Positions 5,333-48,899 of a stretch of 64,000 nt of DNA are shown here, one piece after another. The stretch's first letter is position 1. Each line of letters begins with the position of its first letter. The notes beneath the pieces were generated by a model. It was not told the origin of the DNA. It saw only the letters and a program-made list of their open reading frames with translations, and did no database searches. Source of the stretch: Methanobacteriota archaeon (lineage in GTDB: Archaea > Thermoplasmatota > Poseidoniia > Poseidoniales > Thalassarchaeaceae); assembly GCA_004195715.1 (NCBI GenBank), contig PSPX01000003.1:5232-69231 (forward strand), read 5' to 3'. The translations under genes and the position numbers were made by a program.

Positions 5333-6292
5333 ATGGCCGAACCCCCCGGAGACAGAATTCTGGTAACCGGTGCTCTGGGGCAAATCGGAACTGATCTGGT
5401 TGGGGCCTTGAGGGATCGGCACGGTAGTGACTCGGTGATCGCCTCGGATGTTCGCGAGGTGCCTAGGCACCCATTGCTTGAGGACGGTCCGTTCCGATTA
5501 CTCAGCGTACTAGACGGAGATGGCATGGACTCGATGGTAAGGGAGGAGGAAGTCGGTGAGATATACCACCTCGCTGCGATTCTTTCGGCCACCGGAGAGA
5601 AGAAACCTGAACTGTGCCAGAGGGTCAACGTCGGCGGCACCATCACCGTGTTGGAGACCGCCAAGGAACACGGCCTGAGAGTATTCTCACCGTCTTCGAT
5701 AGCGGTCTTCGGCCCCGACGCTCCGAGAACCGCTCCGCAAGTGACGCCACTCAATCCTACCACCACCTACGGCATGACCAAAGTCACTGGGGAGATGATG
5801 GCACTGAACTACTGGAAGCAGTACGGCGTGGACGCCCGAGGAATTCGGTACCCAGGTTTGATTTCTTGGAAATCACCACCTGGAGGGGGGACTACCGATT
5901 ATGCAGTAGAGATCTTCCATGCCGCACTCAATGAGAGGCATTACGACTGCTTCGTTGGCCCCGATACGAGACTTCCCATGATGTACATCGACGATGCCAT
6001 CAGGGGTACGATAGAACTGATGGAGGCCCCCACTGAATCTATTGGACCGTCTAGGGGCGGATACAACCTCTCTGGGATGTCTTTCACCGCTGGGGATCTG
6101 GCTAATGCGATATCGGAGAGAGTGGATGGCTTCACCTGCGAGTTCAAGCCCGACGAGCGCCAACAGTACGCCGACTCATGGCCCGATGATGTTGACGATT
6201 CGACAGCCCGTGAGGATTGGGGCTGGAAAGCTGAATACGACTTGGGTCGAATGGTCAACGAGATGTTGGACAGACTGAATGATCAGTCCTGA
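5333..6292 (+). CDS. tdh: SDR-type NAD-dependent L-threonine 3-dehydrogenase (UDP-glucose-4-epimerase-like family)
   Basis: 319 aa. GALGQIG Rossmann motif, YGMTK catalytic YxxxK, and a C-terminal ...ADSWPDDVDDSTAREDWGW motif typical of short-chain TDH. Confidence 0.6.
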   Translation: MAEPPGDRILVTGALGQIGTDLVGALRDRHGSDSVIASDVREVPRHPLLEDGPFRLLSVLDGDGMDSMVREEEVGEIYHLAAILSATGEKKPELCQRVNVGGTITVLETAKEHGLRVFSPSSIAVFGPDAPRTAPQVTPLNPTTTYGMTKVTGEMMALNYWKQYGVDARGIRYPGLISWKSPPGGGTTDYAVEIFHAALNERHYDCFVGPDTRLPMMYIDDAIRGTIELMEAPTESIGPSRGGYNLSGMSFTAGDLANAISERVDGFTCEFKPDERQQYADSWPDDVDDSTAREDWGWKAEYDLGRMVNEMLDRLNDQS

Positions 6293-7896
6293 TCCTCCAT
6301 CTCACTCTGCCAGTCAGGAGTCTGAGCGTCTTGCTTGGCCCAGAGCACATCATCAATCCTCAGCACGCTGTTGGCAGCCTCGGTGGCTCCCGCAAGAGCA
6401 TGGTGAGCGACGAACAGTGGGTCGAATACTCCGACCTTATCCATTCTCACCTTATTCCCTGACGCCACATCCATCCCTATCCACGCACCTTCCTCAGCGG
6501 ATTCAGTCTGGGCTGCAGACAACTCGAGAATCTCATCTATTGGGTCGAGTCCGGAGTTCTCGGCGAGAGTTCTAGGCACAATCTCGAGAGCAGCCGCGAA
6601 AGCCTCTATGGCTAACTGTTCACGACCGGCCTGACTTGGAGCGAAGGCTCGCAGATGCCGAGCTAAGTGTGTCTGAGTAGCACCTCCTCCAGGTAGCATG
6701 CGTGAGTCGATTGAGAGTCTGTGGGCAACCCCTAGGGCGTCGTCAAAGGTACGCTTGACCTCTTCTCTGACAGAAGGAGAGGAACCCCGTATCAGAATCG
6801 TAACCGCTCCTCCTTCGGGACCTTCGATGTGAGTGTGCTTGACTCCAGAGTAGGAACACTCCGAGCGGGAACTGTAAGTGCCGATGTCCTTGTCTTTTAC
6901 CCTCTTGGCGTCGCGGACCATCACAGAGCCGGTGATTCTTGCCAATCTCTCAAGGTCCTCGCGATCGTAACGCCGGTACGCCGTGATACCGGCATCGGTC
7001 AGCATGGTCGTAGCGTCTTCGGCGATACCGTCGCGGACTATTAGAAGGTCGACACCGAGTGAGACCAGAAGATCGACCTGCTCACGCATGCGCTCCCTAG
7101 CCCGCTCGTGAAATCCTCTCAATGCATCCGTACTGGTGACTTCGATTGAGGCCTCGAAATCAAGTTTGGGACTCTCCATACCTCCATCGATGATGGCTAT
7201 CCGGCCTCCGTCGGATTCGGCCACTGATGCCATGTCCATCCTTGATTTAGGTAGAACGAGGCCGTGTATGACCTCAGAGTCCAACACACCACCGTCCTTG
7301 ATTAGTAGACGTTTCACCCGTAACCTCTCGAGATCTTGGCCACCGTTTTCGCCGGCGAGTGCCTCAGCGGCCTCGATAGCCAACTCCGTCAGGTGTCGAC
7401 TGACAGATGAGTCGACCTTCCCCGAAATCGAAGTGGCTACAGCTGCACGCATCTCGAAACCATCCTTGGGAATGCGTGAGATTCTCTCCATCTCATCGAG
7501 CGCCTCTGCCAGAGCAATCTGATACCCGTTCATAATAATTGACGGGTGCACACCGGAGCGAACCAGCTCAAGTGCGTTCTGCAGCAACTCGGAGGTCAGG
7601 ATTACCGTGGTCGTGGTGCCATCGCGAGCAGCACGATCCTGAGCCGACGCGGTTGAAATCAACAGTCGAGCAGTAGGATGCTCCACTTTGGCAGTCTCCA
7701 GCACGGTGACGCCATCGTTGGTTATCGTCGTCGAACCACCGTCCTCCACCAACATCTTGTCCAGGCCGCGCGGACCGAGCGTCGAACGGACCGCTTCTGC
7801 AAGCGCAGATGCGGCCTTGACGTTGTCGACCAGAGCTGAGCGCCCGTGCAGGCGGTCGGTGTCCTCTAGGGTCACATCATGCTCTGACTCGACCAT
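6283..7896 (-). CDS. ths: Thermosome subunit (group II chaperonin)
   Basis: The ORF runs to 8037, but the conserved N-terminus (MVESEHD...NVKAASALAEAVRSTLGPRGLDKML) begins at Met48 (ATG complement at 7896). The length upstream of the ...RTTLGP motif matches Thermoplasma thermosome. Equatorial and apical domain motifs are present throughout. Confidence 0.9.
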   Translation of the reverse strand: MVESEHDVTLEDTDRLHGRSALVDNVKAASALAEAVRSTLGPRGLDKMLVEDGGSTTITNDGVTVLETAKVEHPTARLLISTASAQDRAARDGTTTTVILTSELLQNALELVRSGVHPSIIMNGYQIALAEALDEMERISRIPKDGFEMRAAVATSISGKVDSSVSRHLTELAIEAAEALAGENGGQDLERLRVKRLLIKDGGVLDSEVIHGLVLPKSRMDMASVAESDGGRIAIIDGGMESPKLDFEASIEVTSTDALRGFHERARERMREQVDLLVSLGVDLLIVRDGIAEDATTMLTDAGITAYRRYDREDLERLARITGSVMVRDAKRVKDKDIGTYSSRSECSYSGVKHTHIEGPEGGAVTILIRGSSPSVREEVKRTFDDALGVAHRLSIDSRMLPGGGATQTHLARHLRAFAPSQAGREQLAIEAFAAALEIVPRTLAENSGLDPIDEILELSAAQTESAEEGAWIGMDVASGNKVRMDKVGVFDPLFVAHHALAGATEAANSVLRIDDVLWAKQDAQTPDWQSEMEDQD

Positions 7897-8027
7897 GCTG
7901 AGTCGCCGAATGACAGTCTTGCTTTGAACCCGTCCGTTCGGCGCGACATAGCCCGATTCTCGTGCATGCGTGACCGTGCGGTTCATATACGGCAGTACTG
8001 TCGTACTATACAACCTCAGGTTGAGTA

Positions 8028-8636
8028 GTGGTATCAATGGCTGACAGCGAGCGTGATGAGTGGGCTGACGACATGTTCGCCGAGATGGCGAGGATGTTCG
8101 AGCAAATGGGGATGCCCATCGACGTCAAGGCGCTTGAGGAGATGATGAAGAAGGTCATGGATCAGTTTGAGCAGATGGGCATTGACCCTACCAAGATCTC
8201 TCACTCACAATTCAAGGTCGAATCCAACACTGATCCCGAAGAACTGCGTCGGATGATGGATTCGATGATGAACAGCCCTGGGGGATTCTCAGACTTGTTC
8301 AAGAAGATGGGCGTCAATATCGAGGTAGAGAGTTCAGTCGAGCAGGCGGAGGCAGAGGTAGAGGAGCCCGAAGAGCACGAGGTCTCAGATCTGCCTGACG
8401 AGGATGTCTATGTGCATGGCAACACAATGGCTGTCACCATAGACATCTCTAGGATCCTCGACGTCAGGTCCGAGGACATCGAACTTGTACTCAGTAGTGG
8501 CGGCGAGGTGCTGCAACTGATGAGGCGAACCCAAACACGGCCTCTCAAGCGCTTCATACTCCCAGATGCAGCGAACCAGATTCGTGAGTGGCAACTGAAC
8601 AACGGCATCCTAGACATTACATTCGATTTGGCATAG
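8028..8636 (+). CDS. Small heat-shock protein-like: Met-rich N-terminal region plus Hsp20/alpha-crystallin-like C-terminal domain
   Basis: 202 aa. The C-terminus ...VHGNTMAVTIDISRILDVRSEDIELVLSSGGEVLQLMRRTQTRPLKRFILPDAANQIREWQLNNGILDITFDL fits the Hsp20 ACD beta-strand pattern. The N-terminus is methionine-rich and amphipathic (MFAEMARMFEQMGMP...EEMMKKVMDQFEQMG...RRMMDSMMNS). It sits 15 bp upstream of dnaK. Confidence 0.55.
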   Translation: MVSMADSERDEWADDMFAEMARMFEQMGMPIDVKALEEMMKKVMDQFEQMGIDPTKISHSQFKVESNTDPEELRRMMDSMMNSPGGFSDLFKKMGVNIEVESSVEQAEAEVEEPEEHEVSDLPDEDVYVHGNTMAVTIDISRILDVRSEDIELVLSSGGEVLQLMRRTQTRPLKRFILPDAANQIREWQLNNGILDITFDLA

Positions 8637-8666
8637 AGCCGAACGGAATCATTGGAGGAATTGAAA

Positions 8667-10544
8667 ATGAGCGAACCAGTAATCGGAATTGACCTTGGAA
8701 CAACTAACAGCTGCGTTGCTACCCTTGAAGGCGGACAAGCAGTGATAATTCCGAACTCGGAGGGTTCCCGAACCACCCCCAGCGTTGTGGCCTTCACCAA
8801 GGATGGCGAGCGTCTGGTTGGCATCATCGCGAAGCGCCAAGCAGTCACCAACTCCGACAGGACCATACTCTCCGTCAAGAGGGAGATGGGGACTAAGTGG
8901 AATAAGAAAATCGATAATGACAAATACACACCTCAGGAGATCTCCGCATTCGTGCTTCAGAAGTTAAAGTCCGATGCTGAGGAGTACCTAGGCAAGGAAG
9001 TGAAACAGGCAGTTATCACCTGTCCGGCTTACTTCAATGACGCACAGAGGAAGGCCACTCAAGACGCTGGTAGAATCGCCGGCCTCGAGGTACTAAGAAT
9101 CATCAACGAGCCTACTGCGGCGGCACTCGCCTATGGTGTCGACAAGGAAGAGGACCAGACCATCCTTGTGTTCGACCTCGGAGGCGGTACCTTCGACGTG
9201 TCCATCCTCGAGATCTATCAGGTCGATGGACAACCCCAGATCGAGGTCAAGGCAACCAACGGTGACCCCAAACTCGGAGGGGACGACTTCGACAAGAAGG
9301 TGATTGACTGGATTGTCTCGGAATTCAAGAAGTCCTCAGGAATCGACCTCTCAAAGGACCTGCAGGCCATGAGCCGGCTGCGAGAAGCGGCCGAGAAGGC
9401 CAAGATAGAACTCTCAGGAACCAACTCGACACAGGTCAACCTGCCTTTCATCACCATGAGGGACGGTCAGCCGGAGCACCTCGACATGGCCCTTTCACGG
9501 GCCAAGTTCGATGACCTCACCGCCGACCTCATCAGGAAGACGATGGAGCCAACGCGTCTAGCTATGAAAGACGCTGGCGTCAAGGCCGGCGACATCGACA
9601 AAATCCTCCTAGTTGGTGGCAGCACTCGTATTCCCGCGGTCCAAGACGCCGTCGAGAAGGAGACCGGCAAACCCTCGTTCAAGGGAATCAACCCAGATGA
9701 GGCCGTCGCTGCTGGGGCTGCCCTACAGGCTGGAATCATCGTCGGCGACGAGGGAGTCACAGATGTCCTACTGCTGGATGTCTCTCCATTGACTCTTGGA
9801 ATCGAGACGCTTGGTGGTGTAATGACTACGATGATCGAGCGCAACACCACGATTCCAACACGTCGCTCGGAGACCTTCTCCACCGCTGCTGACAATCAGC
9901 CAGCAGTAGAGGTCCATGTGCTACAGGGTGAGCGCGAGTTCGCCAAGGACAACGCTACTCTCGGGCGCTTCCACTTGATGGGCATCCCATCGGCACCACG
10001 TGGTATCCCCCAGATCGAAGTTACCTTCGACATAGACGCCAATGGCATTGTCGATGTTTCCGCCAAAGACCTAGGAACGGGTACAGAGCAGTCAATCAAG
10101 ATTGAGAGTCAGACCTCTTTGTCCGAAGACGATATCAAGCAGAAGATCGATGAAGCATCACAGTTCGCCAAGCAGGATAAGCTGCGAAGGGCTGGCATTG
10201 AACTCATCAACTCGGCCGACAGTATTGTCTACCAAACCAAGCGGATGCTCGAGGACGCTGCTGAGAAAGTCAGCGACCTCGATGCCGATCCAGTCCACTC
10301 TAAACTCGATGAATTGAGGGCGCTGATAACCAAGGAGGACGGCGAGACTACCATAGATGTCGAGGACCTCGACGAGGCTGCTGTTCAAACCAAAATTAGT
10401 GAACTCGAGCAGGAGATGCACGGTATCTCGACCAAGCTGTACGAGGCTGCAGCCGCCGAGATGGCCGAGCAGCAGGACGGGGAAAGCGACGATGATATCG
10501 TCGAGGCCGACTTTGAGGTCGTTGATTCGGACGAAGACGAGTGA
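8667..10544 (+). CDS. dnaK: Hsp70 chaperone DnaK
   Basis: The ORF starts at 8652, but the canonical N-terminus [18 protein letters not shown] starts at ATG 8667, preceded by GGAGG at -8. Full NBD, SBD and acidic C-terminal tail are present. Confidence 0.95.
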
Positions 10545-10545
10545 C

Positions 10546-12071
10546 TCAGTCATCTGTGATGAGCCGGTGCAGGGTCCTTACATGGACTCCTGAAACTCCG
10601 AACTCGAACAGCGGATTTGCACCCTCGGAGCGAGCCTTAGAACCCGGGCCCCAAGCAGTCCCGGCGATGTCGAGGTGCACCCAAGGGATCTTGTCTGCGT
10701 CCTCATCATAGCCACGGTGCGGCACGAAGTACTCGAGGAACGAGGCCGGTTGCGTATGTCGGCGAACGCCGAGTCAGTCATGTATTTCCTGAACTGGGCA
10801 TTCAGTGGCATTCTCCAGACTGACTCGCCCGACCTATTGGCAGCCTTCCTGACACGCTTTCCGATGCCTTCGTCGTTTGCCCACATGCCTGTAATCTGGT
10901 TGCCCAGTGCGACTACGACAGCACCTGTCAGGGTCGCAAGGTCGACGATGTACTCGGGATCGAATTCGCCAGCCTTCCATAGTCCATCAGCGAGTACGTT
11001 GCGCCCCTCGGCGTCGGTGCTGAACACCTCAATGGTCTTCCCCGAATATGTTTCGAACACGTCACCGGGGCGGTATGCTCCCGACCCGGGCATGTTCTCT
11101 GCTAGGCAGGCCAGTCCGTTCACACGACGCTCGTAACCAGTCGCGTGCAGGGCCTCCATGAGACCGAACACTGTGGCTGCCCCGCACATGTCGTACTTCA
11201 TGTCCCACATTCCGCTCGAGGGCTTGATTGAGATTCCACCAGTGTCGAAGGTGATTCCCTTGCCGACTATGCAGGGTCTCTGGACATTATCGTCGGCGTC
11301 AGGATTGAGTGTGAACAGCACCATGCAGGGCTTCCTGTCACTGCCCTTGCCTACGTTGATCAGACCGCCCATCCCGAGATCTCGTAGCTTGTCCCAGTCG
11401 TAGACCTCGACCACGACGTTGTCTTTGTTCTCTGCCCACTCGACAGCCCTGCGGGCGTATTCCATCGGGTACAGCACGTTTGCTGGTTCGTTGCCGAGGT
11501 CGCGAGCGAGATGGACCCCGCCTACAACCGAGTGGATTCTGGAGAGCCCGTCTGCGAGCGCATCCTGATGGCGTACGCTGGCTTGAAAGTCAGTCGACCA
11601 CGGCTCGGTGACATGCTCGTCATCGACCCCCTGGTGCGCGAGGAACTCGTAGTCGCGCAGCATCATGCCCTCAGCGAAGTCGAGCATGCGCTCGCTTGAC
11701 CAGCCTGAGGTGAAGCGTACAGTCAGTGCTAGCCCATTCTTCTTAGAGAGAGCAGCCATAACCCGAGCACCGATGTTCCGGGCCTTCCTGTGCCCGAAAT
11801 CAGTCTTCTTTCCCATGCCTACCAACAGCACCCTGCACCCGGGAGTCCAGACCGCCATCCGCTGACCTTTCTTTCCCTCAAAGTCGTCAGAGGCTATCGC
11901 CTCCCGGACTAGGCTTCGCTGACTCCGACTCAGCCCCGAAAGGGCGTTATTCGGAGCCTTACCGACACCCTCAAAGAGAGGTAGTAGCAGTTGTTTTCCG
12001 ACTTCTTCGAATTCGCTGTTGTTCCATTCCATGAATATTGCCAAAGCCTCTGATTCGGTAGTGATATACAA
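10546..12071 (-). CDS. Leucyl aminopeptidase (M17 family) with an apparent frameshift near 10745
   Basis: The ORF-track frame (10578..12071) carries the M17 core (GKGITFDTGGISIKP, NTDAEGR-like STDAEGRNVLADG). After ...ADIRNRP the conserved C-terminus continues in another frame (ASFLEYFVPHRGYDEDADKIPWVHLDIAGTAW...) to a stop at 10546. Confidence 0.75.
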
Positions 12072-39689: not shown

Positions 39690-39941
39690 TTAGTTTTCGT
39701 CCAAGGCCCCAGGTCTCAGTTGCCAGACACAGATTTCGTAGCGACCGGAGAGGGCACCGCCACGTTTTGTCGTTGCGACCTTCATGATGTCCTTGTCTTT
39801 AGACAGGACGTTCCCCAGTTGCTGGGGAGTAGTCCCATGACGCATGGTGGAGTTCACGTGCTCAAGAATCTCTGTCGTGTTGGCTTCTCCTCTGTCATCC
39901 AAGAATTTTTTTATCTTCTGTCGTAGTCTGGTTGTCCTCAT
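39690..39941 (-). CDS. Small winged-helix DNA-binding protein (83 aa)
   Basis: Basic N-terminal helix (RLRQKIKKFL), TTEILEHV, and a putative recognition helix/wing. Paralogous to the adjacent 88-aa ORF and to the N-terminus of the 873-aa protein. Confidence 0.4.
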   Translation of the reverse strand: MRTTRLRQKIKKFLDDRGEANTTEILEHVNSTMRHGTTPQQLGNVLSKDKDIMKVATTKRGGALSGRYEICVWQLRPGALDEN

Positions 39942-39951
39942 TTAATTCCTC

Positions 39952-40218
39952 CTATTTGTTGTCGGGCTTAGCACGCTCATGGTGCTGTACCCACTCCTTG
40001 GTCGCCCATTCCGAGAGTGGGGGGGTACTGCCGGTCATTCCGCTCTTGCGAACAGTTCCGATGCGGACGATACTCGTGTCTGTCTCCATCAGTGATGCTA
40101 GATCCAAGCTTCCAGAGTAGCCTTCCTGATCACTCAGCCAAGTTGCGATCTCAGCACTGTTCCTAGGCTGCTCAGAGATGTATTTGCGAATGATAAGTCG
40201 GATTTTTTCCACTTCCAT
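39952..40218 (-). CDS. Small winged-helix DNA-binding protein (88 aa), tandem paralog
   Basis: KIRLIIRKYISEQPRNSAEIATWLS... aligns with the 83-aa neighbour. Confidence 0.4.
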   Translation of the reverse strand: MEVEKIRLIIRKYISEQPRNSAEIATWLSDQEGYSGSLDLASLMETDTSIVRIGTVRKSGMTGSTPPLSEWATKEWVQHHERAKPDNK

Positions 40219-47582: not shown

Positions 47583-48899
47583 GTGTCTCGCGGAGAGCGA
47601 GCATTCAGGAGGCTTGACGTGTCGGATTGGAGCGCAAAGAATCCATACTCTTCTAATCTGAATGAGAACTACGTTCTCAATGGTGAGGGATCACTCAAAG
47701 AGACCCGGCACATTGTATTCGATCTCGGCGACTCCGGTCTGCAGTACAAGGCCGGCGATGCACTTGGGGTGATTCCACGCTGTCCGCCTGAACTGGTTGA
47801 GGGGATTCTGACCACCTGTGGCTTCTCAGGTGAGGAAGAGGTCGAGACCCATCTAGGGGCTTGCAGTTTGCGCGAGGCGCTCACTGATCGATACGAGATT
47901 CACAGGATTTCGAAGAAGTGGATTAAGGGACTCGGATCAAGACTGTCGTCCGGTTCGGGCAGCATCGAGATCCGAATCGTCCATCGGCAGCGAACCTCGT
48001 CACAAGATGGTTCAGTAGTGATGGACTGGAGGGGGAGCGGAGTCGAGGATGACATTCCAGACGGCTATGTCGAAATCGGCTCAGCCAGAGATCCTGCCGA
48101 GGTACTCTGGGCTGAACTGACAGAGGACCCCAAGGCAATGGAGGACTACATCTGGTCGCGTGACTACATCGACGGTCTCGCAGACTTCGGGCACATCGGT
48201 TTCACTCCTCAGCAGCTCGTCGAGGACATGGACAGGCTCAAGCCAAGACTCTACTCTATTGCCAGCAGCCCCGACTTCGAGCCGGGCGCAATCCACCTCA
48301 CAGTCGCTATCGTCCGTTACAATCACCACGAGCGCGATCGGGCCGGGCTTTGCACCGGATTCATGGCGGACCGCTGCGAGATCGACGAAACCGAGATCGG
48401 CGTATTCATGTCTCCGACCCGGTCGTTCGTCCTGCCCGAGGATGGCTCAACAGACGTCATAATGGTAGGCCCGGGAACGGGAATCGCTCCATTCAGGGCC
48501 TTCCTGCAGCAGCGTGAGATCGACGGCGCAAGTGGGCGCAACTGGCTGTTCTTTGGCGACTGGACCGAAGAGGGAGAGTACCTGTATCGTGAAGAGATGG
48601 AGGCATGGAGGGATAGCGGATTCATCGATCGCCACGACCTAGCTTGGTCTCGTGCAGGCTCGGAGAAGGTCTACGTCCAGCATCTGATGAAGCAGAACGG
48701 TGAGCAGATTTGGAATTGGATTGACGGTGGCGGGTACTTCTACGTCTGCGGCGACAAGAACTACATGGCCAGAGACGTCCACACCACCCTCATTGAAATC
48801 TGTTCAGAGTTTGGTGGTATGTCAGAAGATGAGGCTAAGGAGTTCGTCGAGACCGGTCTGATGAAGACCGAGAAGCGATATCTCAGAGATGTCTACTGA
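47583..48899 (+). CDS. Diflavin-reductase-type FAD/NADPH-binding oxidoreductase (CysJ/CPR C-terminal module without FMN domain)
   Basis: 438 aa. RLYSIASSP (RxYS), GPGTGIAPFRAF, and C-terminal YVCGDKNYMARDVHTTL...RYLRDVY typical of sulfite reductase flavoprotein / CPR. No flavodoxin-like N-terminus. Confidence 0.7.
   Translation: MSRGERAFRRLDVSDWSAKNPYSSNLNENYVLNGEGSLKETRHIVFDLGDSGLQYKAGDALGVIPRCPPELVEGILTTCGFSGEEEVETHLGACSLREALTDRYEIHRISKKWIKGLGSRLSSGSGSIEIRIVHRQRTSSQDGSVVMDWRGSGVEDDIPDGYVEIGSARDPAEVLWAELTEDPKAMEDYIWSRDYIDGLADFGHIGFTPQQLVEDMDRLKPRLYSIASSPDFEPGAIHLTVAIVRYNHHERDRAGLCTGFMADRCEIDETEIGVFMSPTRSFVLPEDGSTDVIMVGPGTGIAPFRAFLQQREIDGASGRNWLFFGDWTEEGEYLYREEMEAWRDSGFIDRHDLAWSRAGSEKVYVQHLMKQNGEQIWNWIDGGGYFYVCGDKNYMARDVHTTLIEICSEFGGMSEDEAKEFVETGLMKTEKRYLRDVY

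Follow-up and report, generated by a model that had tools for sequence, protein, structure and literature searches.

An MGII (Marine Group II) archaeon of the Poseidoniales (Thalassarchaeum) carries an sHSP-like gene and dnaK in what appears to be a single stress operon, placed under a candidate operator of the Phr/HSR1 (arCOG01684) type; we put the probability of this whole model at roughly 60%. The window analyzed, a 64-kb stretch of this organism's DNA, contains what is, judged by comparison with related sequences, a conserved stress-chaperone locus of Poseidoniales in which the sHSP-dnaK layout is an order-wide trait. The description of the locus in a first-pass annotation is confirmed overall with small corrections, and its interpretation is partly supported. 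The features are listed below by position in the window.

6283-7896, minus strand: thermosome paralogue, 537 aa, with its ATG at 7896-7894
7897-8036: spacer of 140 bp between the divergent thermosome and sHSP-like genes
7928-7921, minus strand: thermosome TATA-like box, TTCAAAGC, located 24 nt upstream of the ATG
7929-7971, no strand: variable inter-promoter spacer, free to diverge in sequence and length (~40 to 120 bp) among relatives
7974-7989, plus strand: sHSP-dnaK promoter, with CCGT in the BRE position (7974-7977) and the TATA box TTCATATA (7982-7989)
7995-8010, plus strand: direct repeat GTACTGTC / GTACTATA of the first-pass annotation
8005-8029, no strand: dyad ACTATACAAC-CTCAG-GTTGAGTAGT, 25 bp, candidate operator over the predicted transcription start
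8037 (ATG), stop by 8636, plus strand: sHSP-like gene, 199 aa
8037-8309, plus strand: N-terminal Met-rich helical region, residues 1-91
8310-8381, plus strand: acidic linker, predicted to be disordered, residues 92-115
8382-8636, plus strand: alpha-crystallin domain (residues 116-199) and stop codon, without a C-terminal IXI extension
8654-8658, plus strand: GGAGG, Shine-Dalgarno sequence of dnaK as read from the sequence
8667-10544, plus strand: dnaK (Hsp70), 625 aa
10578-12032, minus strand: pepA, M17 leucyl aminopeptidase, convergent with dnaK

The divergent arrangement of the thermosome gene and the sHSP-dnaK pair was identical in 90/90 related loci with flanks present, and the sHSP-like gene lay 19-74 bp upstream of dnaK in 90/90 loci (46-98% identity). 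The two genes also adjoin in a lineage of only 38% identity (L091) despite rearranged flanks. The control region shared by the divergent genes starts at 7897 as claimed and is 140 bp long, against the ~130 bp given before, when the sHSP-like gene is started at ATG 8037. An alternative start at GTG 8028 would give an ORF of 202 aa, but in many relatives this GTG falls in a different frame from the ORF, and ATG 8037 was therefore taken as the start. The gap of 30 bp between the sHSP-like stop and dnaK holds the dnaK Shine-Dalgarno sequence, and neither a TATA-like nor a terminator-like site was found in it. Published MAG data indicate that the unannotated sHSP-like gene is transcribed in situ.

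The product of this gene is labelled 'hypothetical' by NCBI and JGI in this clade, and it can be assigned to the sHSP family. Its C-terminal domain has the seven- to eight-stranded beta-sandwich of an alpha-crystallin domain (ACD), and the predicted structure returned sHSPs as all of its top nine PDB matches in Foldseek. A family profile matched the whole ACD of Hsp20.1 from Sulfolobus solfataricus (PDB 4rzk), the closest solved relative, at E 4e-5, while the single sequence reached only E 0.17 against PDB. The protein carries the beta9 signature NNGILDITF, in line with the ...NGxLxI signature of sHSPs, and like them is built of three parts, an N-terminal region, an ACD and a C-terminal tail. 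Distant members of the family end in GGIPIF, GNIPIL or GGIPII, the IXI (IPI) motif of sHSPs, and some of these are named 'HSP20 family' by JGI/IMG. In contrast, the window protein ends in ...ITFDLA and has no IXI motif, as is the case for all homologues at 46-98% identity, which makes classical sHSP oligomer assembly uncertain. The family is small (1.8 billion proteins yielded 74 clusters at 50% identity), and all members bearing a taxon name are Poseidoniales. By homology, the 199-aa protein is a lineage-specific sHSP, for which we infer chaperone activity. The Hsp20-like protein proposed earlier in front of dnaK is thus upheld by the ACD and the family profile, but at 199 aa from ATG 8037, not 202 aa. 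When the profile comparison suggested for it was carried out, GrpE gave no match, and neither the window protein nor any of 20 family members matched Pfam HSP20 (PF00011), even with the threshold relaxed to E ≤ 1.

Methionine makes up 17 of the 199 residues (8.5%, compared to 3.0% over the genes of the window), and 15 of these lie within the first 100 residues. Helices are predicted at residues 3-23, 30-46, 51-56, 67-78 and 84-90 (pLDDT 50-78), and two of them, 30-46 and 67-78, show strong amphipathy with Met lining the hydrophobic side, in agreement with the Met-rich, amphipathic N-terminus described before. sHSP N-terminal regions are usually variable, whereas the one found here is long (~90 aa), Met-rich and conserved across the family alignment. 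It is followed by an acidic linker of 20-25 residues that sets the protein apart from other sHSPs; residues 92-111 have pLDDT <50, and the length of the linker varies in the family alignment. A J-domain was considered for the N-terminal region and ruled out, as it has no HPD motif and no DnaJ similarity.

DnaK itself is of the usual type (Pfam HSP70, 1.7e-229; NCBIfam DnaK equivalog NF001413, 880.8 bits vs a cut-off of 648; TIGR02350, 851.7 vs a cut-off of 822.6). Searches of the 64-kb window, and of 90 related loci to a distance of 10 kb, turned up neither grpE nor dnaJ. This bears out the earlier statement that both are missing near dnaK, but published MGII tables list GrpE, DnaJ and DnaK as core genes, and the published annotation of one MGII MAG places grpE, dnaJ and dnaK on three different contigs. 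Since GrpE and DnaJ are core genes sited elsewhere, the DnaK system of MGII would be dispersed, not incomplete. ClpB is a core gene in MGIIb only, according to published lists.

The thermosome-family gene is, by sequence, a divergent group II chaperonin paralogue. It matched Pfam Cpn60_TCP1 (PF00118) at 8.6e-133, scored barely above the cut-off for NCBIfam thermosome_alpha (NF041082; 450.8 vs 450) and fell below that of TIGR02339 (442.7 vs 671). A second, canonical thsA is also present in a published MGII MAG. Linkage of the paralogue to sHSP-dnaK was kept in all related loci as well as in the distant lineage, whose orthologue has 47% identity. At the other end of the locus, pepA (Pfam Peptidase_M17, 1.1e-92) gave a match that was cut at profile position 267/310. 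Alignment with L011, L001 and L012 showed that its 3' end is frameshifted in the window by a 37-bp deletion after ~10748. The intact pepA of L011 stops 1 bp from the dnaK stop, which is the distance the first-pass annotation had given; in the window the main pepA ORF stops 33 bp from dnaK because of the deletion.

The TATA-like tracts noted previously in the control region are real and conserved on both strands (TTCATATA, 7982-7989, plus; TTCAAAGC, 7928-7921, minus). The pattern CCGT-N4-TTCAWATA was conserved in 72 distinct upstream sequences and also kept in L091, and the TATA box at 7982-7989 is the only promoter-like element serving the sHSP-dnaK pair. On the thermosome side, every lineage keeps the block, as TTCAAAKC or TTGAAAxC, at a distance of 22-24 nt from the start codon. 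The 24-nt distance between TATA and ATG implies a leaderless thermosome mRNA, and the same spacing was seen at other genes of the window. The thermosome promoter has no dyad.

A repeat at 7994-8010 had been proposed as the operator, and its conservation in related genomes had been set as a test beforehand. The repeat is present, but only one of its two copies passed. The first copy, GTACTGTC, was conserved only in relatives with at least 66% protein identity (a genus-level clade), while the second, GTACTATA, was conserved more widely and is the left-arm part of the longer dyad at 8005-8029. A strongly conserved, operator-like element does adjoin the TATA box, although it is the dyad and not the repeat. 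The dyad reads ACTAtaCAAC-N5-GTTGagTAGT. It lies 15 bp downstream of the TATA box, a spacing that is fixed among relatives. Of the 86 loci with the upstream region, 74 carried the dyad pattern without a mismatch and 12 with one. The copy at the locus was the only match to the pattern, with no second copy in the window or in ~1.1 Mb of related loci. A further half-site, GTTCAGTAGTG, at 48010-48020 was attributed to chance, as it falls within a 438-aa CysJ-like ORF and the number of matches, two, equals the chance expectation.

The arms of the dyad are near-invariant and symmetric at 8/10 positions, the central 5 bp vary, and the spacer around the dyad has diverged; the left arm is under stricter conservation than the right. 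L091 has a variant at the same spacing, with the core GTAAC-N5-GTTCA and the left arm ACTATGTAAC. Because leaderless TATA-to-ATG spacing elsewhere is 22-24 nt, transcription is expected to start in the left arm (~8012-8014), so that the dyad is predicted to overlap the start downstream of the TATA box. The half-sites, ACAAC-N5-GTTGA within ACTAnnCAAC-N5-GTTGnnTAGT, are 5 bp apart as in the HSR1 palindrome. In these respects the dyad looks like a binding site of the archaeal heat-shock repressor family, from which we infer an operator function.

Bacterial-type sites were compared as well. With up to 3 mismatches allowed, the CIRCE inverted repeat bound by HrcA (TTAGCACTC-N9-GAGTGCTAA) was absent from the window, and control of this type was rejected. 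The HspR/HAIR site is CTTGAGT-N7-ACTCAAG; the right arm of the dyad has TTGAGT, but the orientation and spacing of the arms are opposite to those of HAIR, and this candidate was set aside. A scan of viral contigs for the dyad gave 12 matches, compared to 12 for a reversed and 2 for a shuffled control pattern, and hence no enrichment by count. The same extended motif was found in one TerL-linked lineage of marine phage contigs, which may mean that the dyad is not specific to heat shock.

The conservation of the dyad could have other causes than repressor binding. It might be kept for core-promoter function or for translation initiation, or it might bind an unrelated transcription factor, a reading that we consider unlikely but still worth weighing. 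The left arm contains a TATA (CTATACAA, 8006-8013) that ends ~24 nt before ATG 8037, the spacing of the leaderless thermosome promoter and of other genes in the window, and could act as a second, leaderless promoter for the sHSP gene. GTGRT (GTGGT or GTGAT) at the end of the right arm lies 5-8 nt upstream of the ATG and may also serve in ribosome binding, as a Shine-Dalgarno sequence on a leadered mRNA. The stricter conservation of the left arm, and the lack of a second dyad copy throughout the window and ~1.1 Mb of related DNA, would also fit such an element. However, symmetric arms around a free 5-bp center are typical of the site of a dimeric DNA-binding protein and are not needed by TBP or the ribosome. 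Furthermore, the recognizable TATA boxes of the window are of the type TTSAWAWN, which CTATACAA does not fit, and in L091 the dyad is kept although its left arm is less TATA-like. That the dyad is instead an RNA hairpin in the 5' leader, an RNA thermometer for sHSP translation like bacterial ROSE or fourU elements, seems very improbable. Bacterial sHSP genes are classic targets of RNA thermometers, and the 25 nt of the dyad fold as a hairpin of -8 kcal/mol (z = -2.6). Yet the hairpin would not be transcribed whole, as the predicted transcription start is inside the left arm; a leader from 8012 has no unusual structure (z = +0.4). The hairpin also leaves the SD-like GTGGT and the AUG unpaired, the arm changes among 23 variants all break pairs and none is compensatory, and no Rfam family was matched.

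The slot directly upstream of dnaK, which in most DnaK-bearing archaea belongs to a cluster of grpE, dnaK and dnaJ (PMC3564930), raises the question of whether the 199-aa protein is a functional GrpE replacement (a nucleotide-exchange factor) or a very diverged GrpE. Its size (~200 aa), helical N-terminal half and beta-rich C-terminal domain are superficially GrpE-like. Nevertheless, the protein has neither the GrpE fold nor a match to GrpE in Pfam (PF01025) or NCBIfam, and phmmer with the E. coli and B. subtilis GrpE gave E ≥ 0.49. One MGII MAG has a genuine GrpE (PF01025, 1.4e-47) at another site, and the MGII core list includes GrpE. We rejected a GrpE identity; the idea is largely refuted and its remaining probability is slight.

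If the dyad is the operator of an MGII member of the Phr/HSR1 (arCOG01684) family of winged-helix repressors, the locus might work as follows. The sHSP gene and dnaK would be co-transcribed from ~8012-8014, inside the left arm. By analogy with Phr, a repressor dimer on the dyad would permit TBP/TFB to bind but block the recruitment of RNA polymerase, and heat or proteotoxic stress would free the repressor from the dyad, so that sHSP and DnaK are produced together. The sHSP could then hold unfolding clients on its Met-lined helices and pass them to DnaK, which would act together with DnaJ and GrpE from other loci and, in MGIIb, also with ClpB. The divergent thermosome paralogue, with no dyad, would be expressed from its own leaderless promoter (TATA-like box at 7928-7921). 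No Phr homologue was found at E ≤ 10 in the window and 93 related loci; an arCOG01684/COG1777 protein is listed in the published annotation of one MGII MAG.

Our literature search found no paper on stress regulation of MGII archaea. These results refine annotation and yield testable predictions; they do not overturn current understanding. A hypothetical gene can be placed among the sHSPs, and its product has a Met-rich N-terminal region that is conserved and unusual. The dyad, if it is an operator, would show that Phr/HSR1 logic, known from hyperthermophiles, also operates in a mesophilic marine order and on an Hsp70 operon, and the sHSP-dnaK transcript could mark proteotoxic or thermal stress of MGII populations in metatranscriptomes. 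A bolder reading, which we offer as speculation with the odds well against it, is that the IXI-less, Met-rich protein is not a generic oligomeric holdase but a dedicated DnaK partner that co-evolved in Poseidoniales, a client-loading or methionine-oxidation-sensing adaptor for sunlit, ROS-rich surface water; that the dyad is the first Phr/HSR1-type operator on an archaeal Hsp70; and that the site was perhaps borrowed by a marine virus lineage to sense host stress.

Among known systems, the closest regulatory parallel is with Phr and HSR1, which both belong to arCOG01684 (PMC5852551). HSR1 of Archaeoglobus fulgidus recognizes CTAAC-N5-GTTAG, and Phr of Pyrococcus furiosus occupies 29 bp across the transcription start and prevents RNAP from being recruited (PMC9133787). 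The dyad shares with these operators a palindrome with an AAC-N5-GTT core, a similar total size (~25-29 bp) and the same place, at the (here predicted) transcription start downstream of the TATA box; resemblance to the sites of HSR1 and Phr goes no further than this core and the overall architecture. Phr and HSR1 each control an sHSP gene and not thermosome genes (PMC10653856), as would be the case here, where the thermosome promoter is free of the dyad, and the regulator family is present in an MGII MAG. In contrast to the hyperthermophiles, which lack dnaK, the target operon includes dnaK, and neither an AAA+ Cdc48 gene nor a regulator gene is linked to the locus.

Compared to the canonical archaeal grpE-dnaK-dnaJ cluster, the type of DnaK is unchanged (NCBIfam DnaK equivalog), but none of 90 loci has grpE or dnaJ next to dnaK, and the slot upstream of dnaK is filled by the sHSP. 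The bacterial sHSP-DnaK-ClpB triad, in which sHSP holdases hand clients over to Hsp70 (Mogk et al. 2003, cited in PMC9133787), follows the same holdase-to-Hsp70 logic as proposed for MGII, with ClpB on the MGIIb-specific core list. The absence of adjacent co-chaperones was initially described as unusual, and it does depart from most DnaK-bearing archaea; within Poseidoniales it is order-wide, and there is a bacterial precedent. Thermotoga maritima is said to have a dnaK-sHSP operon, reportedly described by Michelini and Flynn in 1999, and resembles the predicted MGII operon in combining an sHSP gene with dnaK while grpE and dnaJ lie at other places in the genome. Non-synteny of dnaK and dnaJ has been noted (PMC12077118). 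Unlike Thermotoga and other bacterial systems, the MGII pair has an archaeal TATA promoter and a candidate dyad operator in place of a sigma factor or HrcA/CIRCE, and an sHSP whose N-terminal region is different and lineage-specific.

The 199-aa protein encoded directly 5' of dnaK is identical or >90% identical to MAG proteins labelled 'Candidatus Poseidoniales', 'Marine Group II euryarchaeote MED-G34' and 'Candidatus Thalassarchaeum', and the window is therefore assigned to an MGIIb archaeon. The locus and its control region are laid out as follows.

CTP synthase, minus strand, 5'-ward neighbour in the local gene order
NAD-dependent epimerase, plus strand, between CTP synthase and the thermosome gene
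6283-7896, minus strand, thermosome-family gene
7897-8036, spacer of 140 bp between the thermosome and sHSP genes
7928-7921, minus strand, thermosome promoter TTCAAAGC, 22-24 nt 5' of the thermosome ATG in all lineages
7974-7989, plus strand, conserved block CCGT-N4-TTCATATA, sHSP-dnaK promoter
8005-8029(30), dyad ACTATACAAC-CTCAG-GTTGAGTAGT(G), exactly 15 bp 3' of TTCATATA, with the ATG 5-7 nt on
8037-8636, plus strand, 199-aa predicted sHSP gene
8667-10544, plus strand, dnaK
10578-12071, minus strand, M17 aminopeptidase (pepA), convergent with dnaK

The left boundary of the spacer had been placed exactly by the first-pass annotation (the thermosome ATG lies at 7896-7894), while the 202-aa length proposed for the sHSP, from a GTG at 8028, had to be revised. 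Because this GTG falls within a non-coding conserved motif and in many relatives is not in frame with the ORF, ATG 8037 was taken as the start. The 30-bp gap between the sHSP gene and dnaK in the window carries a ribosome-binding site (GGAGG); elements resembling a TATA box or a terminator were not found in it.

In 10 species-representative genomes and 80 metagenome contigs (46-98% protein identity), the order CTP synthase, epimerase, thermosome (-), sHSP (+), dnaK (+), pepA (-) was maintained wherever flanks were present, and no match to DnaJ or GrpE was obtained within 10 kb of these 90 loci. The MGII MAG SIMO Bin 19-2 has the same order (pepA, dnaK, an unannotated gene, thermosome, epimerase), with transcript levels of the unannotated gene comparable to those of dnaK (PMC9723583 supplement). 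A distant Poseidoniales lineage (38% identity), whose sHSP has an IPI tail, shows rearranged flanks: pepA, a 185-aa gene, sHSP, dnaK and thermosome follow one another on a single strand. The sHSP-dnaK pair is kept there with a 19-bp gap, as is the linkage to the thermosome orthologue (47% identical). Contig L091 (7295-12321), like L092 and L093, carries this cluster, in which the 185-aa gene is unknown and the sHSP has an acidic tail with IPIF; the rearranged arrangement goes with the IXI tail, the C-terminal anchoring motif of sHSPs, and with lower Met content.

Neither HSP20 nor GrpE, the two identities to be separated by profile search, gave a significant match to the 199-aa protein in Pfam or NCBIfam. 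The Pfam HSP20 model misses it, its label in this clade is 'hypothetical', and some distant members are named 'HSP20 family molecular chaperone IbpA' in JGI/IMG. When 1.84 billion cluster representatives were searched exhaustively with HMMER, a family of only 74 clusters emerged, whose named members are all from Poseidoniales. It was the family profile that pointed to an sHSP: built from 20 diverse members, it matched the alpha-crystallin domain of Sulfolobus solfataricus Hsp20.1 (4rzk) over the whole domain (E 4e-5). The protein carries a beta9 signature, NNGILDITF, and several distant members have an acidic C-terminal extension ending GGIPIF, GNIPIL, GGIPII or DGIPIL, the sHSP IXI motif. On this evidence we identify the protein as a divergent, lineage-specific sHSP. 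The earlier description of an Hsp20-like C-terminal domain and a Met-rich, amphipathic N-terminus thus stands. Residues 1-91 are predicted to be helical, are kept across the family and hold 15 of the 17 Met (8.5% overall, compared to a Met content of 3.0% across genes of the window). Strong amphipathicity was calculated for helices 30-46 (muH 0.62) and 67-78 (muH 0.60), whose hydrophobic face carries Met. An acidic, disordered linker follows (residues 92-115), and all homologues at 46-98% identity, the window protein included, end directly after beta9 without IXI. Given its unusually conserved Met-rich N-terminus, its clade's loss of IXI and its strict linkage to dnaK, the protein may have a more specialised role, e.g. 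as an adaptor dedicated to DnaK or a chaperone sensitive to oxidation.

Alignment of 72 distinct spacers showed that the region is mostly free to diverge in sequence and length, with three conserved blocks. The distance from TTCAAAGC to the thermosome ATG, found likewise at other genes of the window, indicates a leaderless thermosome mRNA. With this promoter as a ruler, transcription from TTCATATA would start at ~8012-8014, within the left arm of the dyad. Among 23 dyad variants the ACTA, AAC, GTT and TAGT blocks are almost invariant, the central 5 bases take many forms, and 8/10 arm positions are symmetric. ACTANNCAACNNNNNGTTGNNTAGT was present at 0-1 mismatch in 86/86 loci that include the upstream region; the rest of the window and ~1.1 Mb of related DNA gave no further match, even at 3 mismatches. 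The 38%-identity lineage has the same architecture, TTCATATA-N15-CACTATGTAAC-CGATG-GTTCAGTAGTG. The operator had been proposed to be a repeat at 7994-8010; the neighbourhood was right, but the first copy (7995-8002) is conserved only among close relatives, and the candidate is instead the dyad at 8005-8029. An exact copy of the right half-site variant GTTCAGTAGTG at 48010-48020 was rejected as a second site: it lies inside a 438-aa CysJ-like flavoprotein ORF (47583-48899), and two matches in the window is the number expected by chance.

The dyad is close in design to two known archaeal sites, CTAAC-N5-GTTAG of Archaeoglobus HSR1 (PMC9133787) and the 29-bp Phr site of Pyrococcus, which spans the transcription start and blocks recruitment of RNA polymerase (PMC9133787; PMC6316755). 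The regulons of both Phr and HSR1 include an sHSP gene but no thermosome genes (PMC10653856). An ArsR-type protein of arCOG01684/COG1777, the family to which Phr and HSR1 are assigned (PMC5852551), appears in the published annotation of one MGII MAG; no Phr homologue was found in the window and related loci searched. From the site design, the sHSP target and the arCOG01684 protein, the best-supported reading is a putative Phr/HSR1-type repressor site, at which a bound repressor would control co-expression of the sHSP and DnaK; beyond a conserved dyad at this position, we infer every step. The same 25 nt can fold (-8 kcal/mol), as an RNA thermometer hairpin would require, but a transcript starting inside the left arm would lack that arm, the SD-like GTGGT and the AUG would stay outside the hairpin, arm substitutions are never compensatory, and Rfam gave no match. 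The dyad may also have a dual role, either supplying a second TATA box (CTATACAA) that would drive a leaderless transcript or contributing to the ribosome-binding site. The bacterial control element CIRCE is absent.

The dyad pattern had 12 matches in viral contigs, compared to 12 in the reversed and 2 in the shuffled control. One lineage of terminase-bearing marine phage contigs shares with the MGII dyad the extended consensus ACTATACAACC-nnn-GGTTsAGTAGTG, located in non-coding DNA at a syntenic position. In these tailed phages (IMG/VR contigs L094, L097-L102 and L105; GC 0.38-0.49; e.g. L105 2367-2392) the motif, ACTATACAACC-nnn-GGTT[C/G/A]AGTAGTG, lies in a repeat-rich stretch, in most contigs just 5' of a ~370-aa gene adjoining the large terminase gene, and agrees with the MGII dyad even at search-free positions. 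The resemblance may be due to chance, since the total match count equals the reversed control. In a viral contig of 72% GC (L096, 597-623), an Xis/HTH-like gene and a 108-aa gene divergent from it are separated by a region with a perfect palindrome, CACTATACAAC-GCACT-GTTGTATAGTG. A further IMG/VR contig (L095, 7448-7505) has two tandem motif copies 32 bp apart; both cases look like operators of unrelated systems.

The aminopeptidase was said to end 1 bp from dnaK, which is true of intact relatives, where it ends 1 bp from the dnaK stop, but not of the window. Here pepA has a 37-bp deletion after ~10748 relative to the close relatives L011, L001 and L012, shifting the frame of the last ~50 codons (~60 in the intact gene, 37 bp longer), and its Pfam match ends at profile position 267 of 310. 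The deletion may reflect an assembly error, or else a genuine pseudogene or variant. With a score under the TIGR02339 cut-off and only just above that of NF041082, the thermosome gene is a divergent paralogue. In an MGII MAG its orthologue has very low transcript levels, far below those of a second, canonical thsA located elsewhere (PMC9723583 supplement). Elsewhere in the window (39690-40218, minus strand), tandem small genes of 83 and 88 aa both match DUF3860 (3.7e-39 and 3.3e-20), a structurally solved family of unknown function.

The first-pass observation is thus confirmed and its interpretation right in outline, with the detail sharpened. What is new stays within known kinds: a divergent sHSP family, an archaeal sHSP-dnaK operon and a Phr/HSR1-like candidate operator. 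The absence of grpE and dnaJ holds for the window and the flanks of related loci but not genome-wide. MGII core functions include dnaJ (158 and 92 genomes), dnaK (154 and 85) and GrpE (141 and 83) (Tully 2019 Supplementary Data 10), and SIMO Bin 19-2 carries grpE (PF01025, 1.4e-47), dnaJ and dnaK on three different contigs (PMC9723583 supplement). Because these data place grpE and dnaJ elsewhere in MGII genomes, the DnaK machine is complete but dispersed. ClpB is core to MGIIb only (142/158 vs 1/92; Tully 2019 Supplementary Data 10), which makes a bacterial-style pathway from sHSP through DnaK/DnaJ/GrpE to ClpB plausible in MGIIb. An sHSP-dnaK pair without adjacent co-chaperones is unusual, as had been suggested: in most DnaK-bearing archaea grpE, dnaK and dnaJ are usually clustered (PMC3564930), whereas in MGII the three are unclustered. 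The locus resembles that of Thermotoga maritima in having dnaK beside an sHSP gene and apart from dnaJ. That arrangement was reportedly described by Michelini and Flynn in 1999. Non-synteny of dnaK and dnaJ is also documented (PMC12077118).
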